Assembly: GCA_973895155.1 (NCBI GenBank)
Contig: OZ316897.1
Span: 21,985,455-22,049,454, forward strand
Length of the DNA stretch: 64,000 nucleotides
From: Marsupella aquatica
Lineage: Eukaryota; Plantae; Marchantiophyta
Direction: 5' to 3'
In this document: piece after piece, positions 10,037-52,489 of the stretch
Layout: every line of letters begins with the position of its first letter
Position numbering within the stretch: the stretch's first letter is position 1
Program-made: the position numbers and the translations under genes
Notes under the pieces: model-generated
Database searches by the model: none
Told to the model about the DNA's origin: nothing
Seen by the model: only the letters and a program-made list of their open reading frames with translations

Positions 10037-10125
10037 TAGCCCTCTCCTCAAGCGGCGCCGTGCCCTCACAAGCCTTTCTGAAGTCTTCCACCAGAACTAA
10101 ATCGCCTTTGAAATGCACATTGGTT

Positions 10126-13140: not shown

Positions 13141-13149
13141 AAAATCTCA

Positions 13150-15593: not shown

Positions 15594-17297
15594 TAGAGGA
15601 AATAGTTCTCGTTCGGTCTGAAATCGTGTTTGTTGTGTCGTTCTAGAACATCTTCAGAGATGGTGTTGAGGAAGCTCGTTGGTGTGTATCGAACATTAGC
15701 CAGCAACAAAGGTTTGTAGTCACCACCAGAGCGTTGGATTAGAAGATGAATAGACCCTTTCCCAGGGGAAGTAACCGAGCCATTCCCAGTATTGATTGGT
15801 AGGGAATCATCAATGTAGTCAGCAAAGAGACTTCGGTTGTTGCAGAAATGATGACTAGCACCCAATCAGCAATCCATAGATTGGCAGAGGACTTGTTCTG
15901 CATATGATTGGTCGCATCATGACCAAATTGAGCATAATAGCTTGAAAAAATGTCACAGTCAATCTCCTCGGTGGATGTCGAGGCTACTTGCGCCTGTACA
16001 TGATTGAGATGTCGAGCAGGAGTACTACTTTGATCTTGTATTCTCTACAAGACTGCAGGATTTGGCTGCCAATGGTCAGGACGTAAATTGATGTGCGCGT
16101 AGAAGCAGCAGTCTGCACCATGACTAGGAAGTTGACAAGTGGTGCACACATCTGGTCTGCCTGGCTTGAGACGCTTGTTCCTAGGAGGAGTCACAGTAGG
16201 AACTCGATTGGTGAGGACTTGAAGCGCAGCACGTTCACGTCTCCTACCGGATTCATCAACCACTTTGTTAATGAGAGCACTGAGAGTGGGAAGATTCTTA
16301 GGATCATGTCTCATCTGGTCACGTTTATTTGCCGTCCAGTGCTCAAAGTGAGTGTCAAGAATGGTGACGAAGTGAAGAACTTGAATCTTTTCTTGAGTGA
16401 CAATCCCGACAGCAGTGAATTTATCAATAGCAGCACAAAATGTGGCACAAAACTCTTCAATCTCTTCGCCTTCATATTTGCAGTGGACAAAATTAGCCCA
16501 GATATCCTGCAAATGAATCAATCCGTCAGCCTCATACGTAGCAATTAGCTTTTCCCAGCAATCCTTGGCTAAGGAAATGTCAGCAAGTGTTTGTTGAATG
16601 TGAGGTCTGCATGATGAAAGATTAATATTGCGAGCTTGTGCAGCTCGGGAGTGAAAAACTTCTGAACGCTCAGCAAATTGATAGTCCTTTTCAGTAGGAT
16701 CTCTAGTCGGTTCAGTCGCAGTCCCATCGACAAACTTCCAGACACTGGAGGCCTTGAGTGTGGAAGTACACAGTAGCTTCCATGCAGGAAAATTGAGACT
16801 ACCCTCTAGCTTAGGTATGAGATGGTTGTTGTAGCCTACGGAGGTACTCATCGAGAAGTTGGAAAAATATGTCAACAATGAAGCGAGAATACGAGTCAAT
16901 GTATCGATGCAAGTAAAGCAAATGTACGTGAGAACACTATGGTAGAGCGTGATGAGTGAAATGTTTTCAGCCCATAACCTGTGACTAAAGCATACGCGCT
17001 CAAACATAGGAAAAATACAAATGCACAATGCAGTGAATAGAATGAGAGGAGACCCTCAAGTAGAGGCGCTCCATCTGAGAAAAAACAAAAAGGCAGTAGC
17101 AGCCCAAGCGATCAGCACAAACAGGTGGCGCGGCTGCCAGTACACAAAGGGCTGGCCGCGTCCCGCTTGTCACAGTCAAGACGTTAGGCGCTGGCAGGTA
17201 GATTTAATTCAAATCCTTAAACTAGATCATCGCTGTTTGATGCTGATTGAATTTAAATCTGACTAGTCTGAGTCTGAGGCTAATATTCTATCTAACA
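15594..17297 (-). mobile_element. Ty1/Copia remnant (LTR, PBS, gag, protease), truncated by element 1
   Basis: Gag IPKLEGSLNFPAWK...VWKFVDG; zinc knuckle CTTCQLPSHGADCC; protease WIAD/GASHHFCN (frameshifted); CA followed by PBS GGTTATGGGC at 16970-16979; probable LTR 16980-17297. Confidence 0.8.
16045..16851 (-). CDS. gag: Copia Gag (UBN2/DUF4219-like) with zinc knuckle
   Basis: ORF translation from MSTSVGYNN; motifs as listed for the Copia remnant. Confidence 0.75.
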   Translation of the reverse strand: MSTSVGYNNHLIPKLEGSLNFPAWKLLCTSTLKASSVWKFVDGTATEPTRDPTEKDYQFAERSEVFHSRAAQARNINLSSCRPHIQQTLADISLAKDCWEKLIATYEADGLIHLQDIWANFVHCKYEGEEIEEFCATFCAAIDKFTAVGIVTQEKIQVLHFVTILDTHFEHWTANKRDQMRHDPKNLPTLSALINKVVDESGRRRERAALQVLTNRVPTVTPPRNKRLKPGRPDVCTTCQLPSHGADCCFYAHINLRPDHWQPNPAVL

Positions 17298-25793: not shown

Positions 25794-28700
25794 ATGGCGT
25801 ACAATGTCCGAGAAGAGACATGCCGCACGAAGTCATGCAATAAACACCTGTGCCGAGTCACTGAGTCCGTTATGTCAAGGATGGGCCTCAGCCCCATTGT
25901 ATCTCCAAGAATGGAGAGCTGTCTGCCAAAAGACAATCCAAGGCATGAAGGTGTGCGGGATGTGCGGACTAGTTTGATACGGAAACACTCCGAGGATCGA
26001 CAAAACATTCACCATCGTACCAAAGGTGACATGATGCCGTATGGCATATGCAATGCATTTGTCAACCAGTACATTGAGAACCAAGATGGAACAATCAACG
26101 TGTGCATGACTTGCGTGCGAAACCCCGCCCATATCCAGATAAACTCCTTCATATCTCCGCAATATGCGATCGACATCCTACCGCGAAGCCGTGTACATGC
26201 AATTGCTCTCGCTAATCGATTGTCGACTAGGCATCATACAAAAGTACAATGGCTTCCACTCTGGCTTCTACAGAAAGGAAAGCCTCCTTGACAACCTGCT
26301 CATATCCTGGAATCTCAACACGCTAGAGTGCAATAATCGAGAGGAGATCATGCGACAGATATACAAGGTCATGGAACTCAATTTGACGACCAACCAACTT
26401 TTCAGAAGATACATTTCATTGGTCGAATTGCCAGACCCGTCACTAGGACTGTGCATCCTAAGTTCCGACGGAGTAGAGAACATCATCAAAGACAAGAGGG
26501 CAAAGGGAATCACCACAAGATCCATGAACTTTGACCCATTCGACCTCGACCTACACATCCTCCAAGATGTGCAGTACAGGATCCCGACTTCACCCAAGCG
26601 CAAGTACCAGGTCTTTCGTTCCGGCACCGTGTATGACCGCAAGAGAATGTGCTCCAAAGAGAGCGTCAACACCGACGCGGAAGGAATATCGAACGATCCA
26701 CAATTGACATTGGAAAATGCAATGTTCCCGTTCTTGTTTGTCCACTCAAGGGGTTTCCATCAAGGACAACTCAGCTTGATTGACTATATGAAATGGAGGA
26801 CACAACAGTTGTTCAGCATATTCACTTTGTACAAGCCGTACATGCTTATCATGTACCAATTGCGACAGGCCAGCCAAGTAGCAAGCATGAGCAGGATGAT
26901 AGTAATCGACAAGGAATACATGCAGATCAAGGAGAAATGCCCCCACTTTAGCGAGAAGGAAATATACAAAATGCTGATAAAAAAGACAATCATGCAGGCC
27001 ATTCTTGGGAGCTCGGCGTGGCATGGAAGACACCTCGACGACCTCAAGTGCATGGTGAGAAAATGGGGATTGCCCCACTTCTTCCTCACGCTCACTTGCG
27101 ACGAGCTTAGCGACACCCGTTGGCCTGAGATCGCCGACCTCGAGAACCTCGTGAAGAGGATGAATCCGACCTTCTCATGGAAAGATTGTCCTATCAAATG
27201 CGCCGTGCTCTTCCACGAATGAATCCAACATTTTTTCAGGGATTACATTTTGTCGAAATGCGCCATAATCAGAAATGTGATCCAAGTCATCAGGTACGAG
27301 TTGCAGGGCCGCGGATCACTCCACGCCCACACGGTGCTATGGGTCAAGGATTGCAACATCAATCGAGTCACGAACAAAATTGCCGCATTCATCCCTGGCA
27401 GATTTGACTCGACATCCGATAGATTCAAAGAGCCGAATGGACATGAAGAAAAGACCCTGTATTGCAATGTGGTGACAAAACAACTTCACTACTGCAAGGA
27501 GGGCTTGTGCTTGCAAAGGCACTCCCAAACCGGCCTCAAAAACTGCAAGTTGGGTTTCCCCCAAGAAACTCACCTTGACAAAGATGCGGCCATCGACCCC
27601 GCCACGGGGAAATGGAGGTACCATAGGCCAAGCAACCACCACCAAAATGTCATGCCATACCACCCGCTCGTGTTGTTGTTGTGGGGCGCGCACATGAACC
27701 TGTAGCGCGTCACAAACGCGGCCTGGTCATTCTATTTGCTCAAGTATGCGATCAAATGCGAGCCCCTGGGATCACTCCAGCTCAATGCGAACGATGCGCG
27801 CACTCTAGGACTCGAGGACCTGTGTGAAGTCCAACTCAAGCTCGTTAGCGGAGCCGTCCTATCTCGGAGCGTGTGCACCACGGAGGCGGCCTTGATGTGC
27901 CTCAAAATCAGCATCATCCATCGCTCGGAGACAGTGGCGTTCATGGACTCGTCACCTCCGGAACTGAGGTCCGCCATCTACCTTAAGTCCTCGGGGATAT
28001 GTTTGCATCCCACCAGACTCTACGCACAGAGGCCCGAGGACATGTTTGCAATGTCCTTCTACGACTACTTCACCAACCACGAGGTCCTCACCAATAAGAA
28101 AAGCACCACCAAACACTACGTCGGCAGGGATTTGCAAGGCAATTTTGTGTATCGGACGGATTGGCTCGTGCAATTTTTGGAGTATCATCCAGTATACAAG
28201 ATGAACGGCTTCTTCTACAACTATCTCTTGAAGGTCGTGAGATTCCGTGCAGAAGTAGAGATTCTCCTCAGGCCCATAAGCGAGACGTGGAGCTACTTGC
28301 ACGAGTGCATACACCGCAAGGTGATAACCAGCGTCGACAACGTACACAAGTTGGTGCTTGAGTATTGCGCATCGCACCTCTACTCCACCCACCACACATC
28401 CCACCTGCTATAGGAGCTGAACGAAAAGCTTCCCCACCAAATTTTCAACGACGCGGCCACATTCCAAGCAGTCCCCACCGTTGCCGTAGAGAAACCGATC
28501 GGCGCGGTGCTCAACGACAAAACTCTCCCGACCGTCAACTTGACTCCGGACCAAATCAAAGTGTTTGAGGCACTCAAGGATTTCAAGAGCGGTCTGTTCA
28601 TGATCGATGGAAATCTGGGATCCGGCAAGACTTTCTTCATCTCTTTCATGAACAAATACTTGACATATAAAGGGAGGAAGGTGAAGATGTGTGCCACCAC

Positions 28701-29429
28701 GGGCGCGGCTGCCAAAAACCTTCACGCGGACGCGGTGACAATGCATGCCTTGTTCAGCATTCCAATACACGGAGAGCTCAGGCCTCTGGACATCACCAGT
28801 TCCCAATACCGCATCTTGAGGAACAATGACGTGTTCATCATAGACGAGGCGAGCATGCTGACACCCAAACTATTGCGTTGCGTCTCCAGAAGACTACACG
28901 AGACACTCCAAGATGAGGACTGCTCATCCGACCCATTCCAAAATACGACGGTCATCCTGGTCGGAGACATGTGCCAATTGCCTCCGGTTTGCACCCACCA
29001 CACCAACGACATATGCAGGTCGTGCCACCTCTCGTCCTCACCATATTTTGAGACCATGCGGAAATTTCACCTCAGTACTGTGCTCAGACAGAGCACAGAT
29101 CGGGAGTTCATGGAGTTCCTTAACAACATCCGCACAAGCCTCCCTACCAAGAATCGATCGATGAGTGCCTGGGACGATGTTACGTGTCCAAACAAGAAGC
29201 CCATGATTTCATCTACGCCTCGACGACCGTGATATGCACACATAGAGAAACAGTCGACAACTACAACAAATGGGCATTACGGAGATATTTTCCACGCCAA
29301 GAGATCGTGCCCGTCCCAATACTCACCAATGCCCCTTCAGACGAATCCACCCGGCCTTGGATACAAGATCCCTCCTTCCACACACTGACGAACGTTGCAA
29401 TCAGATGCAAGGTGATTCTCACACACAAC
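25794..29429 (+). pseudogene. Helitron Rep/Pif1 helicase (RepHel), 5' part
   Basis: HUH motifs FFLTLT, RYELQGRGSLHAHTVLW and YLLKY; Pif1 motifs GNLGSGKT, FIIDEASML, LVGDMCQLPPV and LRQ; in-frame stops at 27220, 27703 and 28411; interrupted at KVILTHN. Confidence 0.9.
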
Positions 29430-30101
29430 TGACACGAAGCCTTAAAGGATGGGTAATAAGCCCAATGTATAAGAACTAATGATAAAAAAACCTTGAAAAT
29501 ATGGAAAAAGGCAAAAAATGCATCTAAAAACAAGCTCTTTTTTTGGCAAGAACTCAAAACTTGCAAAAAAACACAAAATAGGGCATCATTTTGACTACTC
29601 AAAATCACAAAACTGGTTGTGGGAAACATTTAATAAGCAAATACCACATATTTCAATGTTGCAATTTACTACTTGCACACATTCAATCGGCTCAATAACA
29701 CATTCACCCTTGAAATACCACCCTAAAGTTCATTGACATCCCAAATATGTAAAGTTTTTAAAAGAGGGTCAAGATTTCCAAATTATTTTGCAGTTTGTAG
29801 GATCCTAGGGTTCATTTACCAAGAAAAACCATCATTCACACAAAGGGAATGACCAGTATATCAAAAGCTTCCAAATATATATGAGATTCTAGAAGGTACC
29901 TCTTTTAGTTGATATTTTGTTTTCTGAATTTCTCAAACAAGACTGCCCACACGATGGACATTCTCAAAATGTCAAACTTCTTTCAATATCATTCATGAAT
30001 TCATGAATTCATCATTCACAACATTTATGGTTTGCCACCAACTCAAACAATAATAAATTGCAAATACTCTTGTTTGACAAAATTGCTAAGATTGGTAAAT
30101 A

Positions 30102-33100
30102 TCAATTCCTACCATTCATTTCTAGAGGAACTTCCATTGAAGTTTCTTGTTGATAATTTCTAACTATGCTACCTTCACCTTCTTGGTCTTTCTCCTCCTT
30201 GAGAAATTCTGAGAGTCGTATTTTAATACGATCTATTGTTTTCTTGTAAAGAGTATCAGACCTTGTTAGCATAAAATTATATGCAAAGACCGTAGTTGAA
30301 GACAGATCAAGGTCTTGACAAAACCAAACTGGTTTCAAGGTTCCCTTGCCTCGTCCACTTTTCTTCTTCTCGTAACTCAACACTTCTGGCAGATATTTTC
30401 CTTTCCAAGGGTCGGATCCTTTCTTTGTTGCATGCCACAGAACTGAGATAATCTTTGGGATGTGAGCCTCATCGCGAAGAACAATTTTTTCTACTTTAGC
30501 CACCCAAAATGATTCAGACTTCTCTCCGGCCACAGAAATAAATGTGTTGATTTCCAAATCCAAAAAATCACCTTCCATATTCTCCTTCTGTGCATTTATC
30601 TTTTCTTGATTTCGATATGGACCAACATAAATTTCTCTAGTTGGACCGTACACTCTCTCTTCAATTTCTTCCTCATTCAATATAGTTGTAAGAGGTTCAG
30701 CTCCGAGATCAGCTTCAACATTTGTATCCCCTTGTGCCTTGGGCCATTCAAATGGAGAGATCAAAGGTCTTTCTTCAAGCAAGAGACTGAGATCTATTGA
30801 ATTCTCTTTGTTCCTCAGAAAAAGAAGTCCACCAAACAACTTCTTCTTCCGAGAATAATATTTGAGCTGCAAATATACCTTTTTGAATTTCATTCAAACA
30901 ATCATCCATTTCGGACAGGGTCATTTTTCCTGAAGATGATACATGAGCTTGATTTCCCGCCCTTCCGTCGTCTCATTTCTTGTCTTCCTTTCTTGATAAG
31001 TGGCATCCCATCAGAGCACCCAATCACCTTTGGTGGCATGTCTTCTTTCAACAATTTAACACCTCCTTCTGGTTTCCAAACCATGTCGATGGAAAATTTC
31101 TTCCCCCATTGTGTTGGAACTTGATCATCTTCACAAGCAAAAGAAATTTTATATTGGTGATGAAAAGTAACATTTCGTATCCTTTCTCTGATCAAAGCAG
31201 GCTCTGAGAAAGCAAATTTTCCAAAATCATATGTCTCATTTAAAAGGGTAATTTCAGGTTGGGGTTGGTAAGATTCTTGAATAATCTTACATAAACTATC
31301 ATAGGTAAAGGCCTTAAATCTTCCAAGCCTTTTTGAGAACCTACTAAACATCTGATCTATTTGATCATGGGTGTGTCCAATTAAGAGGAATCCAAGTTTG
31401 ATTTTTCGAAATACCTTTTTTTGTACCAGCATGTGAAGATATGTGAAAAGTAAATTGTTTTTGTTTTCCCTACTTGTATTGTCAAGCTGAAGGTAAAAAA
31501 CTGGTGGAAGGCCCCCATACTTCTCTTGGTATTCTAGGAATACTCTTTGTAAAATAGTAATGGTAAGATTTCCATCATTATGGAGAACTGGATAATTAAG
31601 GAACACCCTAGAAAATAGTGCTCCGTGGAAAAGAAGACAACCAACCACATGCATTTGGATTAAACAGGCCTCATCAATGGATTTTGGAGGACGTGGCCAA
31701 TGGGGTAATCTAGTCTTTTTTTGATCAATTCCATCAATCACAACTCCCAAATATTTTCTGGGTTTGTGAAACATTTCTTTCGATGCTTTGCTAGTTTTTC
31801 CCGCTCTTTCGATTGTTGTTCTCGATGTTTTTGTAACATTATTTCTCCTCTCCCTGCAATGAATCCAAAAATGGTAGAGCAACGTTGTTAACTTGAAATT
31901 CATTCCTAATGTTTAGCCATTACTCAATTGATTTCCTGACAAATCTAATACAAAGACATGTTCAAAACAACAAAAATGAAAATGACTTACGTTTTTCAGT
32001 TTCAGAGACTCCTTTGTCTCGAATCGTTTTGAATTCCTCACAGTCCGCACAAGCACTAAAACGATTCACAGGAGGAATCTTCACATGCCCAAAGTCTTAT
32101 TACCATACTTTCAAAAATTGCCAATATGATATTTTGGATGACTCATCAGTGATCACATAGCTTGAATCATATATTTTCCAAACTTCTAGTTTGGAATAAT
32201 TATCAGGCAAATGTGAAACATCTTTATTTGGTAGAGTCTCCACACGAGTCTCAAAAAAAGACTTCAACCAAGAGCTCAATACCAATGTTCTCACAGATGG
32301 AGGTCGACCAGCCGGTCTAGGATAAGCAAGATTTTGATTGCCTAGCTTCTTGATCCTATTCAATCTCTCATTTCCTACACAAAACACCATCTTGAAAGCT
32401 TTCTGACACACATCTCTTTGTCCAATCATGTATGTGACATTGGACCTCCCCTATTCATTTCCGTCTTGCTTGACGAGCCACTGCAAAGATAAAGATTGAT
32501 CCTGAGATTTTTGCCTCAAAAACTTTGAGCGTGCTTCACGAATTTGTTTTGGTGAAAGACTCAGGAGACAATGACGTTGACAGCAGTACTTACGATTTGT
32601 CTTCTTGATATCCTCGTCTGTCATCTTTGTTTCACACAAGCTGAGATTTGACGGTCGTTTATTAGCTATCATAACTCTCTCTGCAGGCTCTTCATCACTC
32701 TCAGAAGAAGATTCTTCGATTGAAGAAGATATCTCCACAAGTTTATCGAGTTGGTATGCAGACAAACCCCTCCTCACCCGGCCTCGAGCGGGCCCTCGAG
32801 GACTCAATGGCTCCTCCTTCACTCTCAAAAGGAGTGAGTTTGATCGATTTCCATCTGAATCCCCAAAGAAACCACCTTCGGTTGACTCTCTTGGCCTCTT
32901 GTTTGGAATCTCCTCAAAGACCTTCTTCTTGCCCTTGTTGTATGCCAACTTAGATCCGCTTCCAACCTCAGCCAAACGATCGAAGTTCCCTAGAGATCTT
33001 CTCAAATTGATCCTCTCCTTGTTCGAATTAGTCTCAGTTCCAAGTGGCCTCCTTGTTTCCGCTCTCACTCCTTCTTGAAATCTGAAAGATGTAGGACGAG

Positions 33101-33567
33101 AATACTCACTCTCTTTCATTGGTGCATGTTGCACACCACGACTTTCCCGGAGTGCACAAAAATCCACTTTTGTGCTTTCACTGGGCATTTTTGACACATC
33201 TCCAGATCTGGCCTTCATGAATTCATGAGTCCTCTTTTTCACATCTCCACTATGTTGAGGGCCTACAGAACGCACACCCAATTTAACCCCCCTTTGAGAA
33301 GGATTCGATAATACTTGATGGCCAGGGGGACTTGTACTCTCAGATGAGTCCAAAGACTCAGAGTGCTCACTCAGACAAGGACCAAATACTTTTTGGTACA
33401 CTTAGAGCCTTTCCTTTCAACTTACTCATTGGAGTTGGGGGAAGCATCTCCAAAATAGTGGTTTTACTAGGAGCATCAGGAGAAGTAACAGGACAAGGAC
33501 AATCCGGGAAGGAAACATCATCCGAAATACCATCCGAATAATCGTCTGACTCATAACAGGCTGCCAT
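30102..33567 (-). pseudogene. DUF7869/Sola1-like DDE transposase, copy 2; spliced, frameshifted
   Basis: VIDGIDQKKT-LP, FYLQLDNTSRENKN, FLLIGHTHDQIDQMFS; CCQRHCL, CQKAFKMVF, FSACADC; intron 31854-31990 at the same position as in copy 1. Confidence 0.82.
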
Positions 33568-33664
33568 TTCAAAAATTGCACAAAACTCACAAGGGAACAC
33601 TAGAACACCAAATGAACTCAAACTGAAAAATCGAAATGAGATAGAGTCATGAATACGAAGCCCC

Positions 33665-33671
33665 TTTTATA
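33665..33671 (-). promoter_or_regulatory. Putative TATA box of transposase 2
   Basis: TATAAAAGGGG about 100 bp upstream of ATG 33567. Confidence 0.5.
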
Positions 33672-34609
33672 GATTTTGGAAATAACTCAAAAACTTAATT
33701 AGCAATAAAATAAGAAAAAGGGCCACGCCCTTCATTAGTAATTAGTGACAAGGAAAGAAATCTTTCATGAGAAAATAGTTTATTATTTATCCAAATCTCA
33801 CAGGTTTACTTATGTTTTCAGGTTTCTAATACTCATTAGAGTTCTTTGGAGACTTGGTTAATTCATTCCTGTGAAGTCTTCTCCTGAAATATTGTGAGTC
33901 TTCTCATAATTTTATTTTTTACTTAAAGCATATGTTTTCATGCCAAACTCTTAGATAGTGTATCAGTAATGCATTGGTCATTTTTACCCCATGTTTTCTT
34001 TGATGTTTTTGGAGACTATTCAATTGCAACCAAAAATGTCTTCAATGACCTCTACTTTTAGAGGTTTTCTTGGTTTTTCTTGTATTTCTTTTACCCATGG
34101 TATTGGTTATTTTGGGCCCAAATTTTGACTTCTTACTAGATTCTTTCAAAATGATACTTGATTCCCTTTCATGAATTCATGAAGGGTTACGACCTTCCTG
34201 GATTCCTGGAGTGGAGGTGGCGAAAGCTTCATGAATTCATGAACCCAAAAATTAGAAAATGCTAAGTTTGAGACAAATTGGACTGTCAGGTGCTTGGAGT
34301 GTGGGCGTGCATCTGCAAAGGGCGAACGGAAAGGAAGCTTGGTGAAGAGCTATGGTGGGCTGATGCTTGGTGCTGTGGAAAGCTCTTCCCTCAGTGATTG
34401 CTGTGGTCTGAATAGGAGTTGGGTTGAATCCCTAAACTGGAACTGAAAATCCGGGGCGGACCAACATCTGGTGCAGCTCTGTAATTTCCTGACTGTTGAG
34501 GCGCAGATCGGTCGTGGAACAGAGGATTAATCGTGGAAGGGAGTGGAAGAAATTTGGTTAGGAGGCAGCAAGATCAAAAGCTGTCGTGCAAGTTTGCGCT
34601 CGGGAAGGG

Positions 34610-35130
34610 GATTGTCGAAGGCCTGGGGAGAGGAAATTGGCAAAATTTGGGGGAGGGGGGAGAAATTCGTGAAGGCCAGGGGAGGGAGGAAAAATTGTCG
34701 AGGCGCAGCCGGGGGCGCGGGGAAGAAGCGCCGGCCTCGGGGAGGGGAAAAATTGTCAAGGCGCGGCCAGGGGCGCGGGGAAGAATCACCGGCCTCGGGG
34801 AGGGGAAAAATTGTCAAGGCGCGGCCAGGGGCGCGGGGAAGAATCACCGGCCTCGGGGAGGGGAAAAATTGTCGAGGCGCGGCCAGGGGCGCGGGGAAGA
34901 AGCGCCGGCCTCGGGGAGGCAAAATTGGCAAAGGCCTGGGAGAGGAAATAGTGTCGAGGCGCGGGGGAGGAAAAAGTGTCGAGGCCGGGGGGAAGAAAAA
35001 GTGTTGAGGCGCAGGGCTGAAGCGTCAAAGGTTGGGGGAGGGGAAAGAGTCGAAGCGCCAGGGGAGGAAGAAATTGGCAAAGGCCGGGGGAGGAGAAATT
35101 GTCGAAGGGCCAGGGGAGTCCATCGCCGAA
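34610..35130. repeat. GC-rich, G-run-rich 58-bp tandem array between the divergent genes of element 2
   Basis: AATTGTC(A/G)AGGCGCGGCCAGGGGCGCGGGGAAGAA.. at 34693, 34751, 34809 and 34867, with degenerate flanking copies. Confidence 0.9.
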
Positions 35131-35435
35131 GAGACGAGGTCCAAATTGGGGAGGACATTGCAAACGACATTAAGTGGGGAGGGGTCGATCAGCTCGGGCA
35201 TCTGCCAGGGAGATGAAGGACATAAGCTAAGCCAAAATCAGGGAAAAAAATACCAGTGACACTCTTCTAAGCGGGAACAACCGTCTAGGCTCAGGCGCTG
35301 CAAATTCAACTTCCGACTCACACTGTCAAGGTAAGAACCTTGCTTCATGAAATCATGAACCTGAATTCTGCAACTGAACTTGAAAAACAAACAAAGCTGA
35401 CTTTACATTGTTGGACTTGATTTCAGGAAGTCAGA

Positions 35436-38391
35436 ATGGTTGAACCAAAATCACAGGAGAAGGTGTTAGACGCTATTTTCGTTGAGCATCCATTGACAGA
35501 TTTTGGAAACTCTTCCTGGACAATATCATTGGGTACAGAATCGTGGAAGAAGCCTTTTTTGATGTTGTGCATCTACGAGACCTTGCCTTCTGGAGGTCTT
35601 GGTTGGGTGAATTATGGCCGGATTGATGTCTTTCGACGAGGGGCTGATGTCCTCAATATGCTTATCACAACAAAGGAGACATCTACACTGATTGCAGTTG
35701 ACAGTGAGAGATTTTGTGGAAGAGTTGCGCATTGTTACTTGCCTGATGACATTGAGATGATTATTGAGAAGGTGAAGAATCTGTCTGCAGAAGAAAGCTA
35801 CGATGAGATTGTAGAGCTCATTGCTGGTTTTGTGTTTGAACATCATGCCAGCACATTGAAGAGTGCAATTCGAAAGTCTAGGGTGCAGTAGAGAAGAGTG
35901 CCAGTGCCCGTCCACCAAAGTCCGGTCCTTCTTCTGCTCCTTCCGGATCTCGTCCGAGTTCTGTCCCAGCAAGAAAGATGGTTGTTACATCTCCAATAAC
36001 TGGTGCTGGTTCACAAATTGCAAGATCACAAGAGGGGACAACTGTGACTGGAGGATCAGCACAGGGCACTACCGGTACTCGGACTTCATCAAAGAAACGT
36101 GGACCAGAGGGTTCTCAAGGTGCAAGACCAAGTCCACCAAAATCCAAGAAGCAGACGTTGGAAAAAGTCCCCACTCATCTAGAGTAGAAGGCTCAATCTA
36201 TGTCTATGGATGCTCGGGTGGTGTACCAGGAAGGGATTTTGATGAGGTGTGGAGTTCAAGAGGAGACAATCACAATTGACATTGCACAACTTCACCCACC
36301 TGTCCGAGAGAAATCTTTGGAGTTGCCAGTGTACCAAGTAAGGCATATCCAACCCTACTTTCTTACACAGTTGACAACAAGGATGAAAGCAGCTGAAGCT
36401 AGTCCATTGGCAGCACCTTTTGTTCTCTTGGTTGATCCCAAGGAGTGCCCAACTCGAGCTGATTTTGATTTCTCAAAAAAGAATGATTACCACTATTACG
36501 TGATTGGGGGAAATCATTCTGCTTGTGCAAAGGCAGACCTAGCATTACAATTTCCCAACAACAAGTCGTACAGGAGAGTGCAATCTTGGATCTTTGCAGG
36601 TCTATCTATCCAGGAAGCAAGGAACTTAGCTTGGAGTCATAATATAGACTCTGAATTTCGTCAACAAATGAGCACCATCCAAAGAGTGAATTAGATTCAC
36701 ATGCGATTTGTAGAGAATGGATCATCATCAAATGTTGATTTCAAGGAGTGTGCCACTGAAATCAATCTAAAGGACTGGGGTGTACGTAAAGATTCTGAGG
36801 TTCTGAATGCCAATGATAATTTATTTCAGTTGGCATTTCGTAAGGATCTTGTTTGGTCTTTCATACGGCAGATCTTTGACAGATGGGAGAATTGTGAGAT
36901 AAAAGGACAGAAAGGAGATAAGACCAAGAAAAAGATGTCCAAGTCTGGAGATGCTAAAATGCTATGTGAGGATATGAAGTTGACTGAGTGGAGACACATG
37001 CAGGCATTGAAAGATCCGGAGTGACATGATCTGTCCAGTGCTACAAAGGGTTTTGGCAAAGGAATTATCTCTTCAAGAGATGGGACAGGAATTTCAACGA
37101 CACAAATTCCAAATGCAAGTTCAAAAAGCATTTCTTACCTGTCTTCACGAAGAGAGTTGGAAGAATTGCAAAACCAAGTACCCAGAACACTGCACTGATA
37201 ATGTGCTGAAGAATTTTGTTCATGTCTTCCAGACTTGGGTAAGTTTATTTGAGATTGACTGAGCATTTGTTTTACAGTTTTATTCTTAAGTATGTAGGAA
37301 TCTCATGTACCCAATTTTGTTTTCTCAGAAAGACAGCAGCTCTCGGAAAAAGAAGGGAGAGAATGAAGAAAGCAAAGAGTTGAAGTCCTTCCCCGATAAG
37401 TTCAATGCACATATTGCACAAGCACAGAACTGGTTGGCAATGAAGAAATCTTGCCAAGAGACCCAGGGAAGTGAACTTCATCCTAATGCTTTGAGCATCC
37501 ACAGTTTGGGGATGTGTACTATGATATCTTTACACACGATGCTCAGCGGTTGCATGAGGTAATCCCATCACGAGCTTACACATTGGCTTTGGCAGATATT
37601 CCTTATGGGTTTGGAATGACTGCTTGTCTTCACAAAGACAATGTTGGATGGGGTGTGGAAGAGGTGACCAAGATGGTTCAGTCCTTCAAGGTTGTCACCA
37701 AGGCAAATCTTTGGCGAATTATCATTCATCATAGTATTGACCAGTATGATGCTGTCAAGACTATCTTGAAAGCTGAGTGTAGTGGTGGTTTCCAGAATTG
37801 TATTTGGTAAGAAACATTTCAAAAGGTGAATATGTTTTTTTGGTGTTCATGATTTCATGATGTTTGATTTTGAAACAAATCCATAATGCAAGTTTTGGTT
37901 TTTGCAGGGTGAAAGACAATGTTAAGAATGCAGGAGGTGCAAGGCTTAACAACAATTTTGAGTGTTTCACCATTGGCTTTCATAGTCAGGATGGGAAACG
38001 GTCTTTGGAGCATTTCAATTTTGAGACTAATGAGTCTCGAAATAATGTGGTTGTGTGTCCAGCTGTGACCAATAAGTTGAAACACAACGGGGACAATAAG
38101 CCAAGAGTATTATTGGATTGGGAAGTTACCCACTTTAGCCAGGTTGGAGACTGGGTGCTAGATATTTGTTCAGGGTCAGGCACAGGATTGTCTTCCTCTT
38201 TGGCACAAGGAAGACATTGTGTTGCTGTAGAAATTGATGAGCGCCAGAGTAGTGTCTTGAAAGGGAGAATTCTAAACCTGGTGAACAACATTGAGGAAGA
38301 TGATGGCAAAGGCATGGTGGATTTAGATGTTGATGTTCAAGAGACCATTCTACCAATACCAGAGATAGGAGTTGGAGAGGAGGAAATCTAG
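35436..38391 (+). pseudogene. ParB/Srx-like domain + beta-class amino DNA methyltransferase fusion, copy 2; spliced, disrupted
   Basis: 5' UTR intron 35331-35426; introns 37239-37328 and 37807-37907. PFVLLVDP...YYVIGGNHSACA; ADIPYG; KPRVLLDW...GDWVLDICSGSGTG...CVAVEID. Stops at 35889, 36185 and 36692 plus frameshifts. Confidence 0.85.
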
Positions 38392-38767
38392 GACTTGACT
38401 CTTCAGGAGTTGTTGGAAGTGTTGAGGAAACAAGAGATGATTAGCTGAGGATATTTCTGTAAGACTTTTTAGGGTTGTTTTAGTTGCATAGAAGTAGACT
38501 TTACTTGCAAGTTTTGAGATGTCAATGGCCTTGGAGCCTAGACTATGATATAAATGATTGTTTTTGACAGGTCAATTCTATGAAAATCAAGTTTTGAATA
38601 TGTTTTGTCTCAAACATTGATGTAAAGTCTAGTTTAAAATGCAAAGGGTGAATGTCAAACAAATATGCTGATTTTATTGCTTGTTTTAGGACTACATTTC
38701 TAAAAATCATAATTTTTTGGAAAAAGGAATTAAGGCCTTAGACCCATCCTTTAAGGCTTCTTGTTAC

Positions 38768-39244
38768 ATCGACCTCTCCAAGCAGGCCGAGAACGGCAAC
38801 AGAGGAATCGTGGAGAAAATCACTACAGAAGCCGAAGGCAAAATGTCGATTTTTGTGAGAATGTCTTCCAACCACTGCCTCGTAAAGATCAACCGCACGG
38901 TTCACGAGAACAAGTTCATCTCGGGACAGCAAACCCATCGGAAATCCACTTTCCCTCTCATGCTCGGATACGCCATAACAGGTCACAAGAGCCAAGGTTG
39001 CACACTAGCGGGCAAGGTCATGCTAGAAATAAACAGTGCATTCACACCGGGACTGGTGTACGTTATGTTGAGTAGGGTCACAAATAGAGCATTCATGCGC
39101 ATTGTTGGAGATCTTACGTCGCCGGACTTCAAAGTGTTCCACTTACCAATTCGTCGTGTTCAACAAGCAGATGTCGACCACCAAAGGCAACAAGGCAACG
39201 AAGGCATCACAACAACAACGAGAAACAATGACAGGCGCAAATAG
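38768..39244 (+). pseudogene. Helitron Pif1 helicase, 3' part
   Basis: IDLSKQAENG, FPLMLGYAITGHKSQGCTL and GLVYVMLSRV. Confidence 0.9.
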
Positions 39245-41898: not shown

Positions 41899-42434
41899 TC
41901 ACAGCTGCTTGTAAGAAGCACCATGAGATTCGAGCCAATTTGCTTTCTCTGCATCGGGGATGTTCTGCATCTGCGAGTACATCTCAGCTGCTTCGGAGGT
42001 TGTGAGAATCCAGTTACCCTTTGTACCATCGTCCGTGTAGACTACACCAGTAGGCTTCATCTGGCTGTCAGATGTCTGGGAATCAGTGAGGAGCGATCGG
42101 CGTCGAGCTTGGTACCAGAAAGCTCCGGTGAACTGGGCCCCAACTAAGCAGAAGTTGCCTTTGCCCGAGCCGACCTGCGTGGTGCAGCCTCCATCTCTGT
42201 AAAATTTGCTGGCCTGAGAACTTCCAGATGTGCTTGTGACCAGCACAGAGCCGCCGTCTTTTGCGCTCACTGCACAGCAAATCTGGGATCCGATGCCATT
42301 GAATGAGTAGCCGCTCCCACTGCAGTGCGAGGTGCTTTCGAAGAAGATAATATCAAACTGCTCCAACGAGGCTTGAGAACTGTAACAGAAGCATTGGCAG
42401 CGTACACGACGCCCATTGCGCTGATCTTCGCCAT
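41899..42434 (-). pseudogene. Small secreted Cys-rich protein with frameshifted signal peptide
   Basis: ATG 42434 after an acceptor site. MAKISAMGVV / LPMLLLQFSSLVGA / FDIIFFESTSHC lie in three frames. Mature part has C-x-CC-x-C-x-C and an RRRSLL motif. Confidence 0.55.
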
Positions 42435-44229
42435 CGTGGAAAGGTTGAAAAGGTCCTGCAAAGTAAGTCAGACCCATCCCTCAGTTAGTCCCAGCAAAGC
42501 AATCGCATGGGCTGCAAGCGCTTGCTATATTATCAGAATGATATGCAATCAGATGTTGTGCGTATTGCGAAAAACAACGAAACAACGAAACAACGAAACA
42601 ACTTTGTCCATCAAACAAATTTGGCATCTATGAAAGCTTGGCACAAAAATCGAATCCAGGCCACTGCCTATGTTCTAACGCTGCTGAGAGTGAAAGCAAT
42701 GGCATCATTCAAACATAAAAGTTGCGCCATCGCGCGTCATCAGAGAACGTTTGTCTCACGAGGCTAAGTTACGGATATATTACTCAGCTCAGGTAAGGTA
42801 CTAGAATTGAGCCGCCACGAGTTCAGCTGCGACTTCACTTGTAAAATCGAATGGCAGCGGTGAGAATGAGAATGAGTTTACGTTGGTTTGCATGGCTTAA
42901 ATACTACTCTGGTGTAGACCTGGATTTTCTTCCAAGTCTGGACTGTGGAGCCGTGCCAAGTCCTGTGTAGCAGGGCTCATCTTCCCAACGGAGGACAATT
43001 GACTACAATTCATTTCTTTCCAGCTAGACGTGCTGCAGTTTGGGTACGGTCATTTTCTGTGGGAAAGTTCACTCTCACCGCAGAAGAGAGGTGTCATTAC
43101 GATGCGCTCAATCACAATTGAATAGAAATTACTCAGTCACAGTAGTACGAGGCATACTGTTTTAACCTACAATATAAAAAGTGTCCCCCCCCCCTCTGAG
43201 TGTTTTTGAATTTCCTTTATGTACACCTCCTCTTCAGGTTTATATTAATGTTTCAATCTTGCGTTGCCAACCCTTTGTTAAAATAGGTTACTTTTAAATT
43301 ACATATAAGGTTTATTAAATTTGCATTTCATGCACTAAGGATATTTAAACCCAAGCCTATCTCTTCGCAAGAGTGTGAGGAAGCCAAGAAATGTGAGAAG
43401 TCCTTACACTTCAAGAATGATATTGCCAGCCCCTACCCCTAGAGAGTTGTTTCCTAAGTTTATGGTTTTGAGTGACTTAAGTGTAACCAACTAACTTAGT
43501 CATCATGATTGAGAGAAACATGAAAATCCAGCCACTTTTGTGAAAAGTATTTATAATCTTCTAGAAGCTAAATACTTATGTCCTACAAAAATGACATGTT
43601 TATGTACTACAAAAACGACATGTGCGGAGTGGGACCAACACTTTGTAAGGTCAGTAGCAACGAGGAGAGGGCACAAGTCACCAAGACTGCTTGAAAGGCG
43701 CTCATAAAAAATTCACTCTTTAAAAAGAAGATTATAATCTATATGTGTAGGAACAATACAGAACAAACTACTGCATTTTCTTTTGGGGGATACTCACAAC
43801 TTTAGTTAGCTTAAAAACAAATTCATTACTTATTCATCTAGATGCAACAATATTAATTTATTTTATTACCATAATTATGAGGAAGGTTGCTTAAAGTTGG
43901 AGAGCCATATCCCTGTCAGTTGAATTGATGTTATATTTCATTCCTCCACGAGTGTGTGACACATAGGGTCCTCTAGCTATAATTATTCTGCGCACCAAAA
44001 CTTAACATATGGCTAGAATAATCTTGCGCACCAAAACTTAACATATGCTACGTACACTAGGACCTGAATGACTCCTGGGATCCGACTGACCCAGGTAGCC
44101 AGGATGGACCCAGGCCTGGAGGATTCGGTGGACGAAAAATAGATTGCCACAGGTACTTGTGTGGAGCCGCGGAGTTGATACTCATCACAGTCATATTGTG
44201 GGTACCCTGTTGATACGCATCACATTCAT

Positions 44230-47200
44230 ATTGTGAGTGGGTGCAAGTGCAAGTACAATGAGAGTAGCTGGGAACAAGATATGTGTTCGCTGAAAACCTG
44301 ATGTACCTACTGTTGAAGATCTCGACTTTGTATCGTTAATTTACTGACCAAGCGAGACACGAAGAGTCAATAAGGTTAGTCTCCAAGGAACGAATCCATG
44401 GGTCACCTATCCTCTCAATGATTATATAGACAGTAAACCCGCTGCTTGAGATGCATGACATCCTGACCAATCTGCCTACACAATGTTGAAACGTTTCCTG
44501 TGTACATGGCTTCGACTGACCGCCACAGGCCCACAGCTCGTGATAGATTATTTAGCATATATGGTCATGACTGTTAGATTGTACTCCCAGAGTCTCAGAC
44601 TTCACTCAACAAACTTTAGCGCCCAAGCCTTATTTTAACATGCTATATGCTTGATTGACCCACAGGGATACAGCCCCGGATAGAGATGAGCATTCAGATC
44701 ACCTTGCCCATGGATAAGCATATCTAGGGTAAAGTGTTTAATATATTTTGTCACAGAAAGTACATTACAAGAGATTTCGTTTAGTACTCCATGCCAAGAA
44801 AATGCATCGCCTGATCTTGTGAGACAGGGGAGGCATCAAAAATTTCTTAATGGGAAACCGGCTCATCAATTTGTTCTTGACAACAAGGCTGCTGATAAGG
44901 TGAGTCGGTCCCTACCGTAGTTCCTAATGGCCCGAATTGTTCAGCTGCTTAATTTATTCTATCACGTTTTATGTCTGCAGATCAGAGGATAACTGACAGA
45001 GGTTGGGTTCCGAAAGAGTTATTCAGTGTTGGAGGCTTACTTTGGTTGTCCTTCGGATGCCTTGCTTACATTTTCTCCATGGACTCTGTGGAACAGAAAT
45101 ATGCCCTTAGTCATTGAAGAAACGAATTGTGCTTGGGAAAACATGATAAAGATATCTGTTCCAGCTGGCGAGCTATCGTTGATGTGATTTAGAAACCATA
45201 TTTTATCCAATCAGGCGTCAACTGATGACCTTTTAATTTCCTTCCCACGATCAAGAGAAGCACTGGAAAGGGTGAAAAAGGGGCCCCATATTTCTTGAGC
45301 ACTGTGTTATTCTCTCACACAACAATGTTGCATTGAGTACTTGACAACTCGGGTGGCTTTCCTGAATGGTTAGCAACGACCAGATGGCGGGCCCAAATGT
45401 ATTGATGCAAGGTCAGGTCAACAAAGCTACATGCTTCTACTACCGTATACCTGTGCTTTTTTCCTAAAATATGATTGAAGAGTACAGGACGAAGAGGCTT
45501 ACGTAGCGCTTTGCTAGCAAACCAGACCTAGTCGCCTAGTTGGAAAATTTGATTAATGTTTGTTTCGAGACACAAAAACAAATTTTCACAAGTTGACAGA
45601 ATCATATGAGGGCTGGAGATGGTTCGTTTGTGTTCAGGTCAGTATGGAAACACTTCAGACTTCACGGGCTTAATTTGTGAAGAACAGAACGTCCAATTTG
45701 TTCAAGTTGAGCCGAACAAACGAGGGCAATCCGAAAATTATTCATAGTCAGATCAAGTGATGGGACAACACCCTTCGGAATCTAACTTTTTCAATTTGAT
45801 CAACGACCAGTCTGAATAATTAAATGATCTCAAGCCATTTCTGTATTGGTTTAATGACAGACAACTAAAACTACCGGTTTCTTCTTAAAGAGCTACATGT
45901 GACATTCCCTAATTTGAATTCTAAAATATGGGATGTGCCGAGCGACTACCGTCATAAACATTTTGGCAGTATGAAGGTCTTTGGGGATGTGCTAATCGAA
46001 CGCCTGTCAGCTGCATTGGGGCCGATTAACTCTCCTTGATTTGAGCATCTGCACGTTTCTCAAGTCCCTCTCCTCGAACTTGCTGCGAAACTATACAGAA
46101 TGGCGGGTCGACATCTCTGCGGTTCAGCAACGGTAGTCGGTATCAAGAACCAATCTCTCAGTAATTAGATCTCCCTACCACCGTAAACCAATCGCTCAGT
46201 AAGTGATGTTACTGACAGGAATTCAAAACAGCATTTGCGGAATGACGGGTGTTGTTGTGAGTAAATAGGGTCGTTCGATTGCGTCGACCATGGTTGAGAG
46301 TTGTGTGATTGAGCCACAGGAAACGATAATTGGTGGTATCGAAAATCAGCCTCTCAATATTTTAACTAGATGCAGAGGAATCTAGATATGCCCTAATGAA
46401 CAATCTTTGATTTTCAATAAAGATGTAACCAGTTATTGGCGGTACGGACAATCATTCTGTCGATATTTCTCGATGCGAAGACGAATCTATAAAATGCATT
46501 TTCCATAAAGATGATGGGTGTTTACGTACCGCGGACAAGAATTGACTGGCTTCAACATTTCTTCACCTCGCCTTGGTATACAAACCATGATACGCTGGTA
46601 CAGATTCCTGCATGGAGGGTTGGGACAGATTCAAGCAGCACTATAGATTCAAGCTGCACTATAGGCGCTGGCGAGATGGGGAGGACTTCAAGTTGCCTCC
46701 TCAAGAATCTTTGATATTCCATACAGATATACACTGCAACCGATGGTACCGAGAGACAGTCTCTCAATACATTTCTCGATGCGAAGAGTAATCTAGAAAT
46801 GCATGTTCCATAAAGATGATGGGTGTTGTTGTACCGTGGAGAAGAATTGCCTGGATTCAACATTTCTTCACCTCACCTTGGATTTACAATCCATGATACG
46901 CTGATACAGATTCATGCATGGAGTATTGTCACAGATTCAAGCTGCACTATATGTGCTGGCCAGATGGAGATGACTTCAAGGTTTGCCTCCTCAAGAATCT
47001 TTGATTTTCCATACAGATATATACTGCTACCGATGGTACCGAGAGACAGTCTCTCAATATTTTCTCGATGCGAAGAGTAATCTAGAAATGCATGTTCCAT
47101 AAAGATGATGGGTGTTGTTGTACCGTGGAGAAGAATTGCCTGGATTCAACATTTCTTCACCTCACCTTGGATTTACAATCCATGATACGCTGATACAGAT

Positions 47201-48300
47201 TCATGCATGGAGTATTGTTACAGATTCAAGCTGCACTATATGTGCTGGCCAGATCGAGATGACTTCAAGGTTTGCCTCCTCAAGAATCTTTGATTTTCCA
47301 TACAGATATATACTGCTACCGATGGTACCGAGAGACAGTCTCTCAATATTTTCTCGATGCGAAGAGTAATCTAGAAATGCATGTTCCATAAAGATGATGG
47401 GTGTTGTTGTACCGTGGAGAAGAATTGCCTGGATTCAACATTTCTTCACCTCACCTTGGGTTTACTATCCATGATACGCTGATACAGATTCATGCATGGA
47501 GTATTGGCACAGATTCAAGCTGCACTATATGTGCTGGCCAGATGAGAGGACTTCAAGTTGCCTCCTCAAGAATCTTTGATTTCCATACAAATGTACACTG
47601 CAATTGATGGTACCGAGAGACAGTCTCTCAATGTTTTGTCGATAGCGCAGAGTAATCTGGAAATGCATGTTCCATATACATGATGGGTGTTGTTGTACCG
47701 TGGAGAAGAATTGCCTTGATTCAAACATTTCTTCACCTCCCCTTGGTTTGCGAACCATATAAGATTGGTACATTTCGAGCAGCACTATGTTGGCGAGCAT
47801 GAGAGGGATTCAAAGTTGCCTCCTGAAGAGTCTTCGAATTTCCAGAAAGAGGTTGACACTAATTGGCGGTACCCGACTGTCAGTCTCTCAATATTTTCTA
47901 AACACGAAGAGGAATCTAGACATTCATCTTCTAGATAGACGATGGGCGTAGTTGTGACGAGAGGAAGAATTGCCTTGGTTCAACATTTCTTCACCTCGCT
48001 TTTGGTTTACAAATCGGTTGAGATTGGCACCAAGTCAGAAGAGTTATATTGGTGCTACCGAGAATAAATTGTTGACGAGTTCCAGTTGCGTCCAGAAATA
48101 TCTTAGGTTTCCCGTAAAGGATGTTGGGGCCATTGTGACTAGGAGGAAGAATTATCTTTGGATGACATTTCTTCACTTCGCCTTGGTTTACATATCGCAT
48201 CAGATTGGCACAGATTCAATTGAAGAGAAATTCAAAGTTGCCTAGTGAAGGATTGTTGAAGAATATTTGATTTCCATCACAATGATGGGTGTCGAAGTGA
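44230..48300 (+). pseudogene. Highly degenerate NLR-like (NB-ARC-LRR) relic
   Basis: Fragments in the expected order: P-loop-like (~44240), FRKSYSVL (~45010), HDQ (~45246), LRR-like RLTLLDLSICTFLKSLSSNL (~46024), then the 289-bp array with SL(N/S)I-SRCEE-type motifs. Confidence 0.4.
46440..48010. repeat. 289-bp tandem array (about 5 copies; central copies near-identical)
   Basis: Near-identical ORFs at 46823, 47112 and 47401, spaced 289 bp apart. Confidence 0.92.
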
Positions 48301-50466: not shown

Positions 50467-51849
50467 CTACTTCTGATCCAAGGGAAGGTACATGTGTGTC
50501 ATAGATGGTCCGCCTGCACTAGACGAAGAAGCACCACCAGAAGACACTGACAGTTGCAGGGACTTCGATGGCAGATCAGATTGATGATTTGATGGCAGAC
50601 CAGCGGATAAGTCGTGACCTCTAAATTGCCCACTATTTGGATCCTCTGTATGTGCTTCTATTCCCGGAAGGTTGTATGACTTTATGCCAATGAGTGCTTC
50701 GCCATCATACTCCACTACATTCTCCCAATTCTCATATGCTACCTTCACTAGCTTATCGACATAGACCTTTTCGCTGTCGGAAAGTGAGTCAACCGACATA
50801 TATTGACCATCTGCAATCAACCCCATGAGCTGAAAAATGTTGTTAAAAATGACGCCAATATTCTGTTTCTCATCTGCATAGTAAACATGGAGCTTGCCAC
50901 TGAGAACACAGGTTTTCGCATGCTCCACTGTGCCCTCCCACATCTTGTTTGACATTCCATTTCCGAGTATGGTGCGCAGCTTCTGGGGATCCATAACGAC
51001 GAGCCTGAGGAAGTCCTCAACAGTGAGGATACCCGAGTCATTCAACCTCTTATGAAAAGCACCATCCTTCCCTATCTTATCGAGGCGCCACACCTCATCG
51101 TGTAACGCCGGAGGATAATGCTTCTTATACAATTCGCCCCGATGGTCTTTAACAGAGAACGCTTCAGTTTTGGCTTCGCGGATCCGCACGCCCTCACAGT
51201 AACCCGAAGAAATTTTAACCCCTAACCGGAATTTCCTGCTTCTTATCCAACTAGAGTTGTCAGTGAATGTTAATTCGCCCAGCGTTCCAACCCCGTCTTT
51301 CAGGACCACAGAAAGATCTCCCGTTAACAGAGGTCTTTTCCCATCCCGTTCCTTCACTTCGTGGTTCTCGAACTCCTCCTGCAGCCAGTCCTCATCGTCA
51401 TCAGCAGAAAAATCGCCTTCAAGAACCACAACCTCCAGCTTCGCAGAGGCTTCAGCTCCATCCGTAACAACTTGACCGGCATTCGCGTCCAGCAGCACAA
51501 CATGAATGGCAGATCCTTGCTCCCCTTCCACTTTGCTGCCCGTGAACAGAGGCAGAGCCAGCTTGTCTCTGAACTGAAGTCGCAGACATCTCGAGTCCGA
51601 CCCCTGAATCCTCTTCGGAGAGGACCGAAACCCTACTTTTCCAGCAGCAAGCTTCGCCACTACACGCTCAACCTCCTCCCCCACAACCCTACGCAGCAGA
51701 GGTTCTAAACTCGAGGACAGCTTTTGGAGGCTATCCATCTTCACAGCTTCGACAACCACGCTTTTGAAGGCAGGAACCCGTCGCCTCTTCTCACCTGGCA
51801 TGTCCTCGTCTGCTTCCCCCTTCTCTAGAGGTCGCTTCTCCATTACCAT
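50467..51849 (-). CDS. CBP60: Calmodulin-binding protein 60 family transcription factor, intronless and C-terminally truncated
   Basis: [96 protein letters not shown]; continuous ORF with no introns. Confidence 0.93.
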
Positions 51850-52489
51850 GACTACACACAGAACTATCTCTACTTGACTCGAACTGTGCTTGCTCTTCTC
51901 GATACTCACAGCATGCAGCTGGCTTCTGATTACTACGACTACGCCGTTTCTCTCTCAACGACCGATCAATGCATCTTCCTAGAAGATCGCCTCGATGATC
52001 CCCAAACACCTCCTCCTCGTCCTCCTCCTCCTTGCGTGCGAAACAAGCGGCGAAAAGAAACCAACAAAGAGGAGGCGAAGATCAGCGCGAAGGCACGCAG
52101 AAACCAGAACTCCAGCGGAGCTAAGTGACCATATTGAGATCGGAAGCGCCTCGAAGTTGCTGGCTCGGAACACGTCGCGTGCAGAGTGCCCAATCCGCAG
52201 CACACGACCGGCGGATGTACTTTGTGAGTAGCGGTAGTAGTAGTATTTAGTAGAAACAGCAGCAGCAGCAGCAGTCCACGAGCTCAGTCCCGAACATGTC
52301 GACTCGATGCGACGACTCCAATGCCCACCACCCCAACCAAATCGCTCAAGCTCCCGAAAGAGAACCTCATCGAGAAGCTTCGCGAGAGAGAACCCTATGT
52401 TCGCGGCTCTCCTCGAACAGCCCACGCGAGTCAAAAACCAACACCATGGCAGCAGACCCACGTTTCTACAAAGCGGGTCAAACACGCAC

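Follow-up and report, generated by a model that had tools for sequence, protein, structure and literature searches.

Why would a cut-and-paste transposon of a plant keep, beside its transposase, a DNA methyltransferase (MTase) of prokaryotic type fused to a ParB-like protein, and on what DNA might such an enzyme act? The question is raised by a 64-kb stretch of the genome of the liverwort Marsupella aquatica (hereafter the window), in which a 9.34-kb element with terminal inverted repeats (TIRs), element 2 (29,430–38,765), lies in a Helitron helicase gene and carries such a cargo gene, and in which a second, very distant element, element 1, carries the same gene pair. In both elements, and at two related loci found in metagenomes, the DNA is dotted with a palindrome peculiar to the locus. 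A two-domain protein of ParB type, together with a palindrome that changes in concert per element, suggests self recognition; we put at about even the chance that the cargo, a ParB fold joined to a β-class amino-MTase, recognises the family palindrome and labels the element as self by writing N6-methyladenine (6mA) on it. A preliminary description of the stretch had proposed that the transposon might mark itself; it had missed both the palindromes and the DNA-binding part of ParB type, and these give that idea a concrete mechanism.

The preliminary description had also recognised a 9.3-kb unit splitting the helicase, and this was borne out, with the right end refined to 38765. The left arm (29430–29454, plus strand) pairs with the right arm (38742–38765, minus strand), 23 of 25 positions being alike when 29430–29454 is set against 38742–38766, with no inward extension. 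We compared the window with the best four of the six public runs that contain the stretch (two organism codes and two studies among the four; three codes and four studies among all six). Contigs of all four contain the empty site, with its joint at 29427|38766 and two letters fitting either side, and the flanks, once joined, form a single open helicase frame, so that the split is in frame. The interrupted Helitron is itself decayed: its Rep region and the N-terminal part of its helicase occupy 26143–29429 on the plus strand (Pfam Helitron_like_N and PIF1; PIF1 E 4.8e-24), and the remainder of the helicase, in frame across the empty site, occupies 38768–39241 (plus strand). At the right end alone, contigs of all four runs leave into unlike flanks behind 38,765–38,767 (agreement 0.53–0.59). 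Many of these match just the last 63 bp, with 7–11 differences, and so belong to related or non-autonomous elements. Summed contig depth, which is not copy number, also increases, by up to about tenfold, across the final 60 bp (38703–38765) in all four runs, with unlike sequence upstream: this end is common to many related or non-autonomous elements.

Since many other flanks join at 38765, we place the right end of element 2 there and take AC as a 2-bp target duplication. Its left copy (29428–29429) is identified from the empty-site joint of all four runs, with the two ambiguous letters, and its right copy (38766–38767) from the empty site and the flanks at other insertions; a 1-bp duplication (C) is possible, with a worse fit to those flanks. 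Element 2 is a cut-and-paste TIR transposon, shown to be mobile, with TIRs, a target duplication, an empty site, several insertion sites and a transposase of the DDE/D type. The empty site and the many flanks in other runs rule out an assembly artefact.

The transposase gene (30102–33567, minus strand, intron 31990–31854) encodes a DUF7869 protein, as previously recognised (Pfam E 1.8e-49); its frame is interrupted by a stop at 32451 and by three or more frameshifts. Alignment reveals a DDD-like core: D49, D133, D175 and E138 are invariant across 18 aligned DUF7869 sequences, the aspartates sitting in DG.D, QLD and GHTH..DQ, and from this conservation we infer catalytic roles for D49, D133 and D175. 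A DDD-like core is also found in Sola elements, to whose Sola1 group the transposase had been likened; membership is not supported by the target duplication, which is 4 bp in Sola and only 2 bp in element 2. Sola1 is listed for Physcomitrella (table in PMC9033089). All those of the 79 relatives of this transposase that bear a species name come from Riccia sorocarpa, and we found no mention of DUF7869 in the literature searched, which left most subscription journals out of reach.

Head-to-head with the transposase gene, beyond a GC-rich tandem array of a 58-bp unit (34679–35118, plus strand), lies the cargo gene (35436–38391, plus strand), which encodes in turn a weakly PH-like N-terminal domain, a linker, a ParB N-domain, a helical part and a β-class amino-MTase. 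It has introns at 37239–37328 and 37807–37907, and another lies upstream at 35331–35426. The motifs YYVIGGNH, DIPY (37595) and DICSGSG (38161) are present in this order, and the reading frame is interrupted by stops at 36185 and 36692, by frame breaks near 35885, 37022 and 37489, and by a 21-bp gap near 38100. Element 2 as it stands here is therefore a decayed copy, both of its genes being broken. The run contigs differ from the window at least at the breaks near 37,489 and 31,753 in all four runs and near 36,742 and 30,785 in three of the four, and contig pieces of two runs differ at the 21-bp gap; differences at several breaks imply that less damaged copies exist.

The first 150 residues of the cargo are weakly PH-like (fold matches with Z up to 4.9), with no match in the ESM Atlas. 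The ParB/Srx-fold domain (36260–36691, plus strand) bears box I QVR, box II GGNHS and box III HN, and was visible by fold only, Pfam, PHROGs and PDB sequence searches having failed to detect it. We folded the first long exon of an intact relative, P0006, which shares 68% identity with the ParB part in the window (predicted local distance difference test score, pLDDT, 79.7). The model matches Caulobacter ParB with Z 10.3 (root mean square deviation, rmsd, 2.1; 94 residues aligned), its top Foldseek matches are ParB, Noc and KorB, and the best ten among 48,161 chains all belong to the ParB/Srx superfamily. The helical region that follows (36695–37238, plus strand) aligns structurally with the DNA-binding domain of ParB, KorB and Noc; the KorB alignment spans both domains (Z 8.9, rmsd 4.8, 201 of 209 residues), and the two-domain alignments with KorB and Noc cover 196–201 residues at rmsd 4.8–5.0. 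On the evidence of this model the cargo contains a domain of ParB/Srx fold.

One further observation attaches to this exon. The best language-model look-alikes in the ESM Atlas of a relative (P0011) of window positions 36275–37259, which comprise the ParB and helical parts, are DUF3723 proteins (0.95; 170–177 shared features), and DUF3723 may itself be ParB-like. In the literature searched, no paper names DUF3723 together with ParB.

The MTase domain (37487–38290, plus strand; motif I at 38161) matches Pfam N6_N4_Mtase (PF01555) with E 4.2e-6, exceeding the gathering score. A second intact relative, P0041, was folded from ParB through methylase (mean pLDDT 81.9). The MTase part of the model is closest to CcrM (Z 24.5, rmsd 2.6, 225 residues aligned), with M.BceJIV at Z 23.4 and M.MboIIA at Z 21.9, ahead of N4CMT (20.9) and PvuII (20.3). 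Motif IV before motif I, the PF01555 match and the permuted Rossmann fold of the model identify a β-class enzyme; structure searches thus recovered both of the folds, MTase and ParB, that the preliminary description had expected from motifs. Which base would be modified had been left there as 6mA or N4-methylcytosine (4mC). Sequence search, like the fold comparison, ranks N6-adenine (N6A) above N4-cytosine (N4C) enzymes (E 1e-20 against 1e-7 to 1e-5), and the first residue of motif IV is Asp in 87 of 97 aligned relatives and Ser in five (DIPY in 27, DAPY in 9, DPPY in 9, DVPY in 8 and SPPY in 1). Because Asp-first motifs predominate and N6A enzymes come first by both sequence and fold, 6mA is the more likely mark.

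Element 1 (280–7700) carries the same pair of genes at about 28–46% identity, both of them broken: a cargo with ParB-like part and MTase, whose motif IV is NIPY (280–3843, plus strand), and a DUF7869 transposase (4195–7701, minus strand; Pfam E 8.3e-49). The earlier claim of a second copy with shared introns thus stood as regards the gene pair and two intron positions of common phase, those of the transposase intron and of the intron after the helical domain. The resemblance goes no further: one intron per side is unshared, the genes are tail-to-tail as against head-to-head in element 2, and the TIRs and ends of element 1 were not found in the window, beyond which its left end lies. A young long terminal repeat (LTR) retrotransposon sits in element 1 at 8167–15020, with nearly identical LTRs, a 5-bp duplication (GATAG), gag and a short interior. 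A Copia gag fragment (16048–17055, minus strand) starts just past the last element 1 palindrome, and may hide the right end of the element near 15,660.

Relatives of the cargo extend well beyond the window. Fifteen longer sequences related to the ParB exon show 51–75% identity, one of them from Calypogeia fissa. A methylase profile retrieved 244 representatives with E < 1e-10; of 30 looked up, 13 bore an organism name, with no flowering plant among them (Chara braunii 3, Riccia sorocarpa 3, Adiantum nelumboides 4, and one each from Diphasiastrum, Ginkgo and Cymbomonas), so that the cargo has relatives in Chara, liverworts, one lycophyte, one fern and Ginkgo. No relative was found in viral contigs or plasmids. 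ParB or helical segments occur within the same protein in 24 of the methylase matches, ParB and MTase share a single open reading frame (ORF) in P0041, P0084, P0103, P0134 and Chara P0023, and both exons lie together at four of six metagenome loci (L001, L002, L005 and L006). Upstream of the cargo at L001 a head-to-head ORF on the minus strand begins with MAACYE, as does the transposase of element 2, and the contig stops before the core. Both genes are therefore present at three loci, element 1, element 2 and L001, the last with the transposase start only; an 8,829-bp Logan contig that yielded P0174, a transposase, as well as P0010, a ParB exon, both grouping with element 2, adds no more than a hint. 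Between element 2 and L001, non-synonymous divergence (dN) is 0.20–0.32 and synonymous divergence (dS) 2.8 or saturated in four segments, a codon pattern showing that the family has long been under purifying selection. The gene pair is thus a stable feature of the family, as had been surmised; a one-off capture is ruled out by the three loci, the purifying selection and the range of relatives from Chara to Ginkgo.

A quick tree of 55 MTase domains, built with no bootstrap, puts elements 1 and 2 into a land-plant group of weak support (83) and separates Chara from it; the tree lacks DN4MT1, and we draw nothing from it on where the family arose or in what order events took place. Some deep-branching intronless members in metagenome contigs (P0073, P0077, P0084, P0103, P0134 and P0140), a part of them with DPPY or SPPY, could reveal where the family came from; their hosts may be algae, protists or viruses. 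At L005, a ParB–methylase gene of Ginkgo-like type (2700–5390) has more introns and is flanked by retroelement-like fragments; it may be a copy that was domesticated or left stranded.

These data bear on whether the cargo does anything for the element at all. It might be catalytically dead or a passenger, either a DNA-binding protein in which the methylase domain serves as a scaffold or a gene taken more than once from the host. Motif IV is degenerate with respect to DPPY, which occurs in 9 of the 97 relatives, L005 has no transposase match within 9.5 kb, and the N6A-MTase domains borne by DIRS1 elements are thought inactive (PMC4738411). Against this, the Asp, Pro and Tyr of motif IV and the S-adenosylmethionine-binding motif are kept family-wide, dN is low at saturated dS, and the gene occurs in two very distant elements with a shared intron. 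We regard a dead or passenger cargo as very unlikely.

If the enzyme is active, the DNA that it acts upon may be indicated by the palindromes. An unbiased word count yielded one strongly enriched palindrome at each of four loci: TCATG-AATT-CATGA in element 2, TCATG-ATAT-CATGA in L001, TCATG-CTAG-CATGA in L002 and CGATA-AATT-TATCG in element 1 (pattern CGATA-AWWT-TATCG). These are dispersed sequences of 14–16 bp in introns and intergenic DNA, with cores that differ by locus. The palindrome of element 2 has six perfect sites in the 64 kb, all within the element, and eight matches when up to one mismatch is allowed, against 0.35 expected from shuffling. One site (TCATGA-AT-TCATGA, 29993–30006) lies 3′ of the transposase gene, one in its low-complexity N-terminal coding region (33215–33228), two in the intergenic region (34169–34242), and the cargo gene has one in its 5′ intron (35345–35358) and one in its last intron (37847–37860). 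That last methylase intron contains a site in element 2, L001 and L002 alike, three loci with three cores, and in L001, as in element 2, the transposase's unstructured start has sites too; in all, L001 has five sites and L002 three (0.01 expected). Element 1 has 16 sites between 141 and 15341, against 0.61 expected by shuffling; they lie on both sides of the retrotransposon at 8167–15020, with none inside it, and several fall in three unrelated tandem arrays with units of 75, 58 and 71 bp. Enrichment of the 10-mers reaches log10 p of −16 to −40, beyond any multiple-testing correction. Each of these elements thus has its own palindrome, whose core has changed in concert within it.

Such sites might serve the transposase rather than the cargo, as binding or enhancer sites, with the cargo a nonspecific or host-directed methylase acting on new copies, target sites or host chromatin. 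The TIRs are short (24–25 bp), so that additional sites for the transposase would be of use; plant TIR elements commonly have subterminal binding repeats; and transposase and cargo diverge together, so that the change of motif can be assigned to neither. Nevertheless, the sites run through the body of the element, cargo introns and transposase N-terminal coding region included, with no clustering at the ends, and a perfect palindrome of 14–16 bp is the type of site bound by dimers of the ParB family, whose two-domain layout the cargo matches. We consider this explanation rather unlikely.

On the reading that we prefer, in which the cargo marks its own element, a predicted cargo dimer would bind the two-fold site through its ParB/KorB-like helical domain, as ParB binds parS and KorB its operator, and the fused enzyme would methylate adenines in or around the site, the half-sites CATG or GAT(A) being candidates. 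The mark might, speculatively, keep the element expressed or mobile against host silencing by 5-methylcytosine (5mC), or alternatively license its ends for the transposase, and the cargo might conceivably spread from its sites as a clamp. In its fullest form, this amounts to a ParB–parS module kept by a transposon and joined to an adenine methylase, which loads on palindromes, spreads, paints 6mA and co-evolves with its sites so that each subfamily marks only itself; for this complete version our expectation is tentative, well short of even.

The same self-targeting might instead serve a 4mC mark, or the enzyme might be a self-limiting repressor of divergent promoters, like KorB, and not an anti-silencer. 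Two of the sites in element 2 are found between its divergent genes and a third in the 5′ intron, the longest two-domain alignment is with KorB, a repressor, the N4C enzyme N4CMT also aligns well with the MTase model (Z 20.9), and 4mC in bdelloids is tied to silencing of transposable elements (PMC8885841). Ser-first motifs in just five of 97 relatives, and the precedence of N6A over N4C enzymes by sequence and fold, count against 4mC, and we think this pair of possibilities unlikely.

Several observations weigh against self-marking with 6mA by way of the palindromes. The palindromes recur at just four of eight cargo loci, L003–L006 having none (three are fragments of 1.1–1.4 kb); the patterns were derived from the same sequences in which they were counted, so that the shuffle counts overstate significance, and the tandem arrays inflate the count in element 1. 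The transposase could be the palindrome binder. Isolated DNA-binding domains of KorB, ParB and SopB match the helical region weakly (Z 4.0–5.4). The CTP-binding motif of ParB has the consensus GxxR, and box II of the cargo family (GGNHS, GGGHS or GGNHT) is without this arginine, that of box I being kept; CTP-driven sliding of a clamp is therefore doubtful. A D-x-P-Y motif is compatible with 4mC, the domain having switched repeatedly (PMC8885841). No DUF7869 match occurs within 9.5 kb at L005 or in the 0.6 kb upstream at L002. Finally, no intact full-length copy was found in one piece, and none of the contigs listed spans a whole gene.

The rest of the window contains features of other kinds. 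At 50470–51954 (minus strand), one long open frame encodes a CBP60 calmodulin-binding transcription factor (Pfam); this plant gene, spliceosomal introns and the named plant relatives rule out bacterial contamination. A TIR-like unit with 30-bp arms and repeated subterminal motifs (53212–58401) contains a DDE_1 transposase fragment (56738–57574), and 31-bp inverted arms with CACTAC-like sequence at 59365–61589 may be a CACTA remnant. There are also about four to six tandem copies of a 289-bp unit (46445–48012) and an open frame of 193 codons without a Pfam match (41902–42480, minus strand).

Transposons with methylases, and transposons with epigenetic modifiers specific for themselves, are already known separately. 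In the literature searched we found no description of a TIR transposon with a ParB–methylase, and a mechanism that combines ParB, palindrome and methylase would, if shown, be of a new kind. The cargo, with its predicted target sites, is a candidate for the writer of DNA amino-methylation in non-flowering plants, the source of which is an open question. The predicted sites permit direct testing in long-read data already available for Riccia, Calypogeia, Chara, Adiantum or Ginkgo, and natural variants with different palindrome cores would offer a ready set of site-directed methylases.

With ParB–parS, Noc–NBS and KorB–operator the cargo has in common a ParB N-domain, with a helical, DNA-binding-like part after it, and dispersed palindromes of 14–16 bp. 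It differs in its lack of the box II arginine, in the fused methylase, in that no ParA partner was seen, and in being eukaryotic and spliced. It would place a ParB-type two-domain protein in eukaryotic nuclei. CcrM, M.BceJIV, M1.HpyAVI, M.MboIIA and M.RsrI have the same fold and motif order at about 20–28% identity. A phage MTase annotated as ParB, beside a terminase gene, aligns over the MTase (probability 98.9), with no alignment of its ParB part to the cargo family profile; compared with this protein and with β-class N6A enzymes, the cargo has a long helical middle part and a PH-like N-domain in addition.

Marchantia DN4MT1 and bdelloid N4CMT are likewise β-class amino-MTases of prokaryotic type in eukaryotes. 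Both are host genes with SPPY that write 4mC (bioRxiv 2021.02.12.428880; PMC8885841), and N4CMT, described as without eukaryotic homologs (PMC8885841), has a chromodomain. The link to DN4MT1 drawn in the preliminary description is not supported, DN4MT1 having TSPPY and element 2 DIPY; the preprint text on DN4MT1 does not mention ParB. Closer in setting are the transposon-associated N6A-MTases of Iyer et al. (PMC4738411), among them DIRS1-borne enzymes and Trichomonas Dam, a chlorophyte-type Dam whose helix-turn-helix is of ParB type, and haptophyte clade 6, derived from ParB–terminase loci. Like the cargo, these are eukaryotic amino-MTases tied to mobile elements or ParB parts; unlike its permuted MTase, they were placed in unpermuted or other groups. 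In the portion of the main text considered, to which the possibly relevant supplement does not belong, no land-plant clade of permuted ParB fusions borne by a TIR element appears.

Another accessory gene of mobile elements is DUF3723, conserved cargo of fungal Starships (bioRxiv 2021.12.13.472469); no DUF3723 Pfam match was obtained for 35 members of the cargo family among the 25 listed of 29 families, and the resemblance is no more than a lead. If the complete version of self-marking is true, a transposon-run epigenetic code of self and non-self would extend from charophyte algae to gymnosperms, possibly related to DUF3723 of Starships. In motif anatomy the family resembles VANDAL/VANC, a Mutator-like anti-silencing system of Arabidopsis in which VANC causes loss of 5mC (PMC5735166). 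There too a TIR element carries a second gene and element-specific motifs in introns and non-coding DNA, which are multiplied within tandem arrays and shift together from one subfamily to another (PMC5735166). VANC (DUF1985/DUF287, domains with no Pfam match among the proteins scanned here) is not a methylase, whereas the present family has a writer of prokaryotic type with a ParB fold, palindromic motifs and an unrelated transposase; it would provide a second, unrelated case of a VANC-style arms race, conducted with different chemistry.

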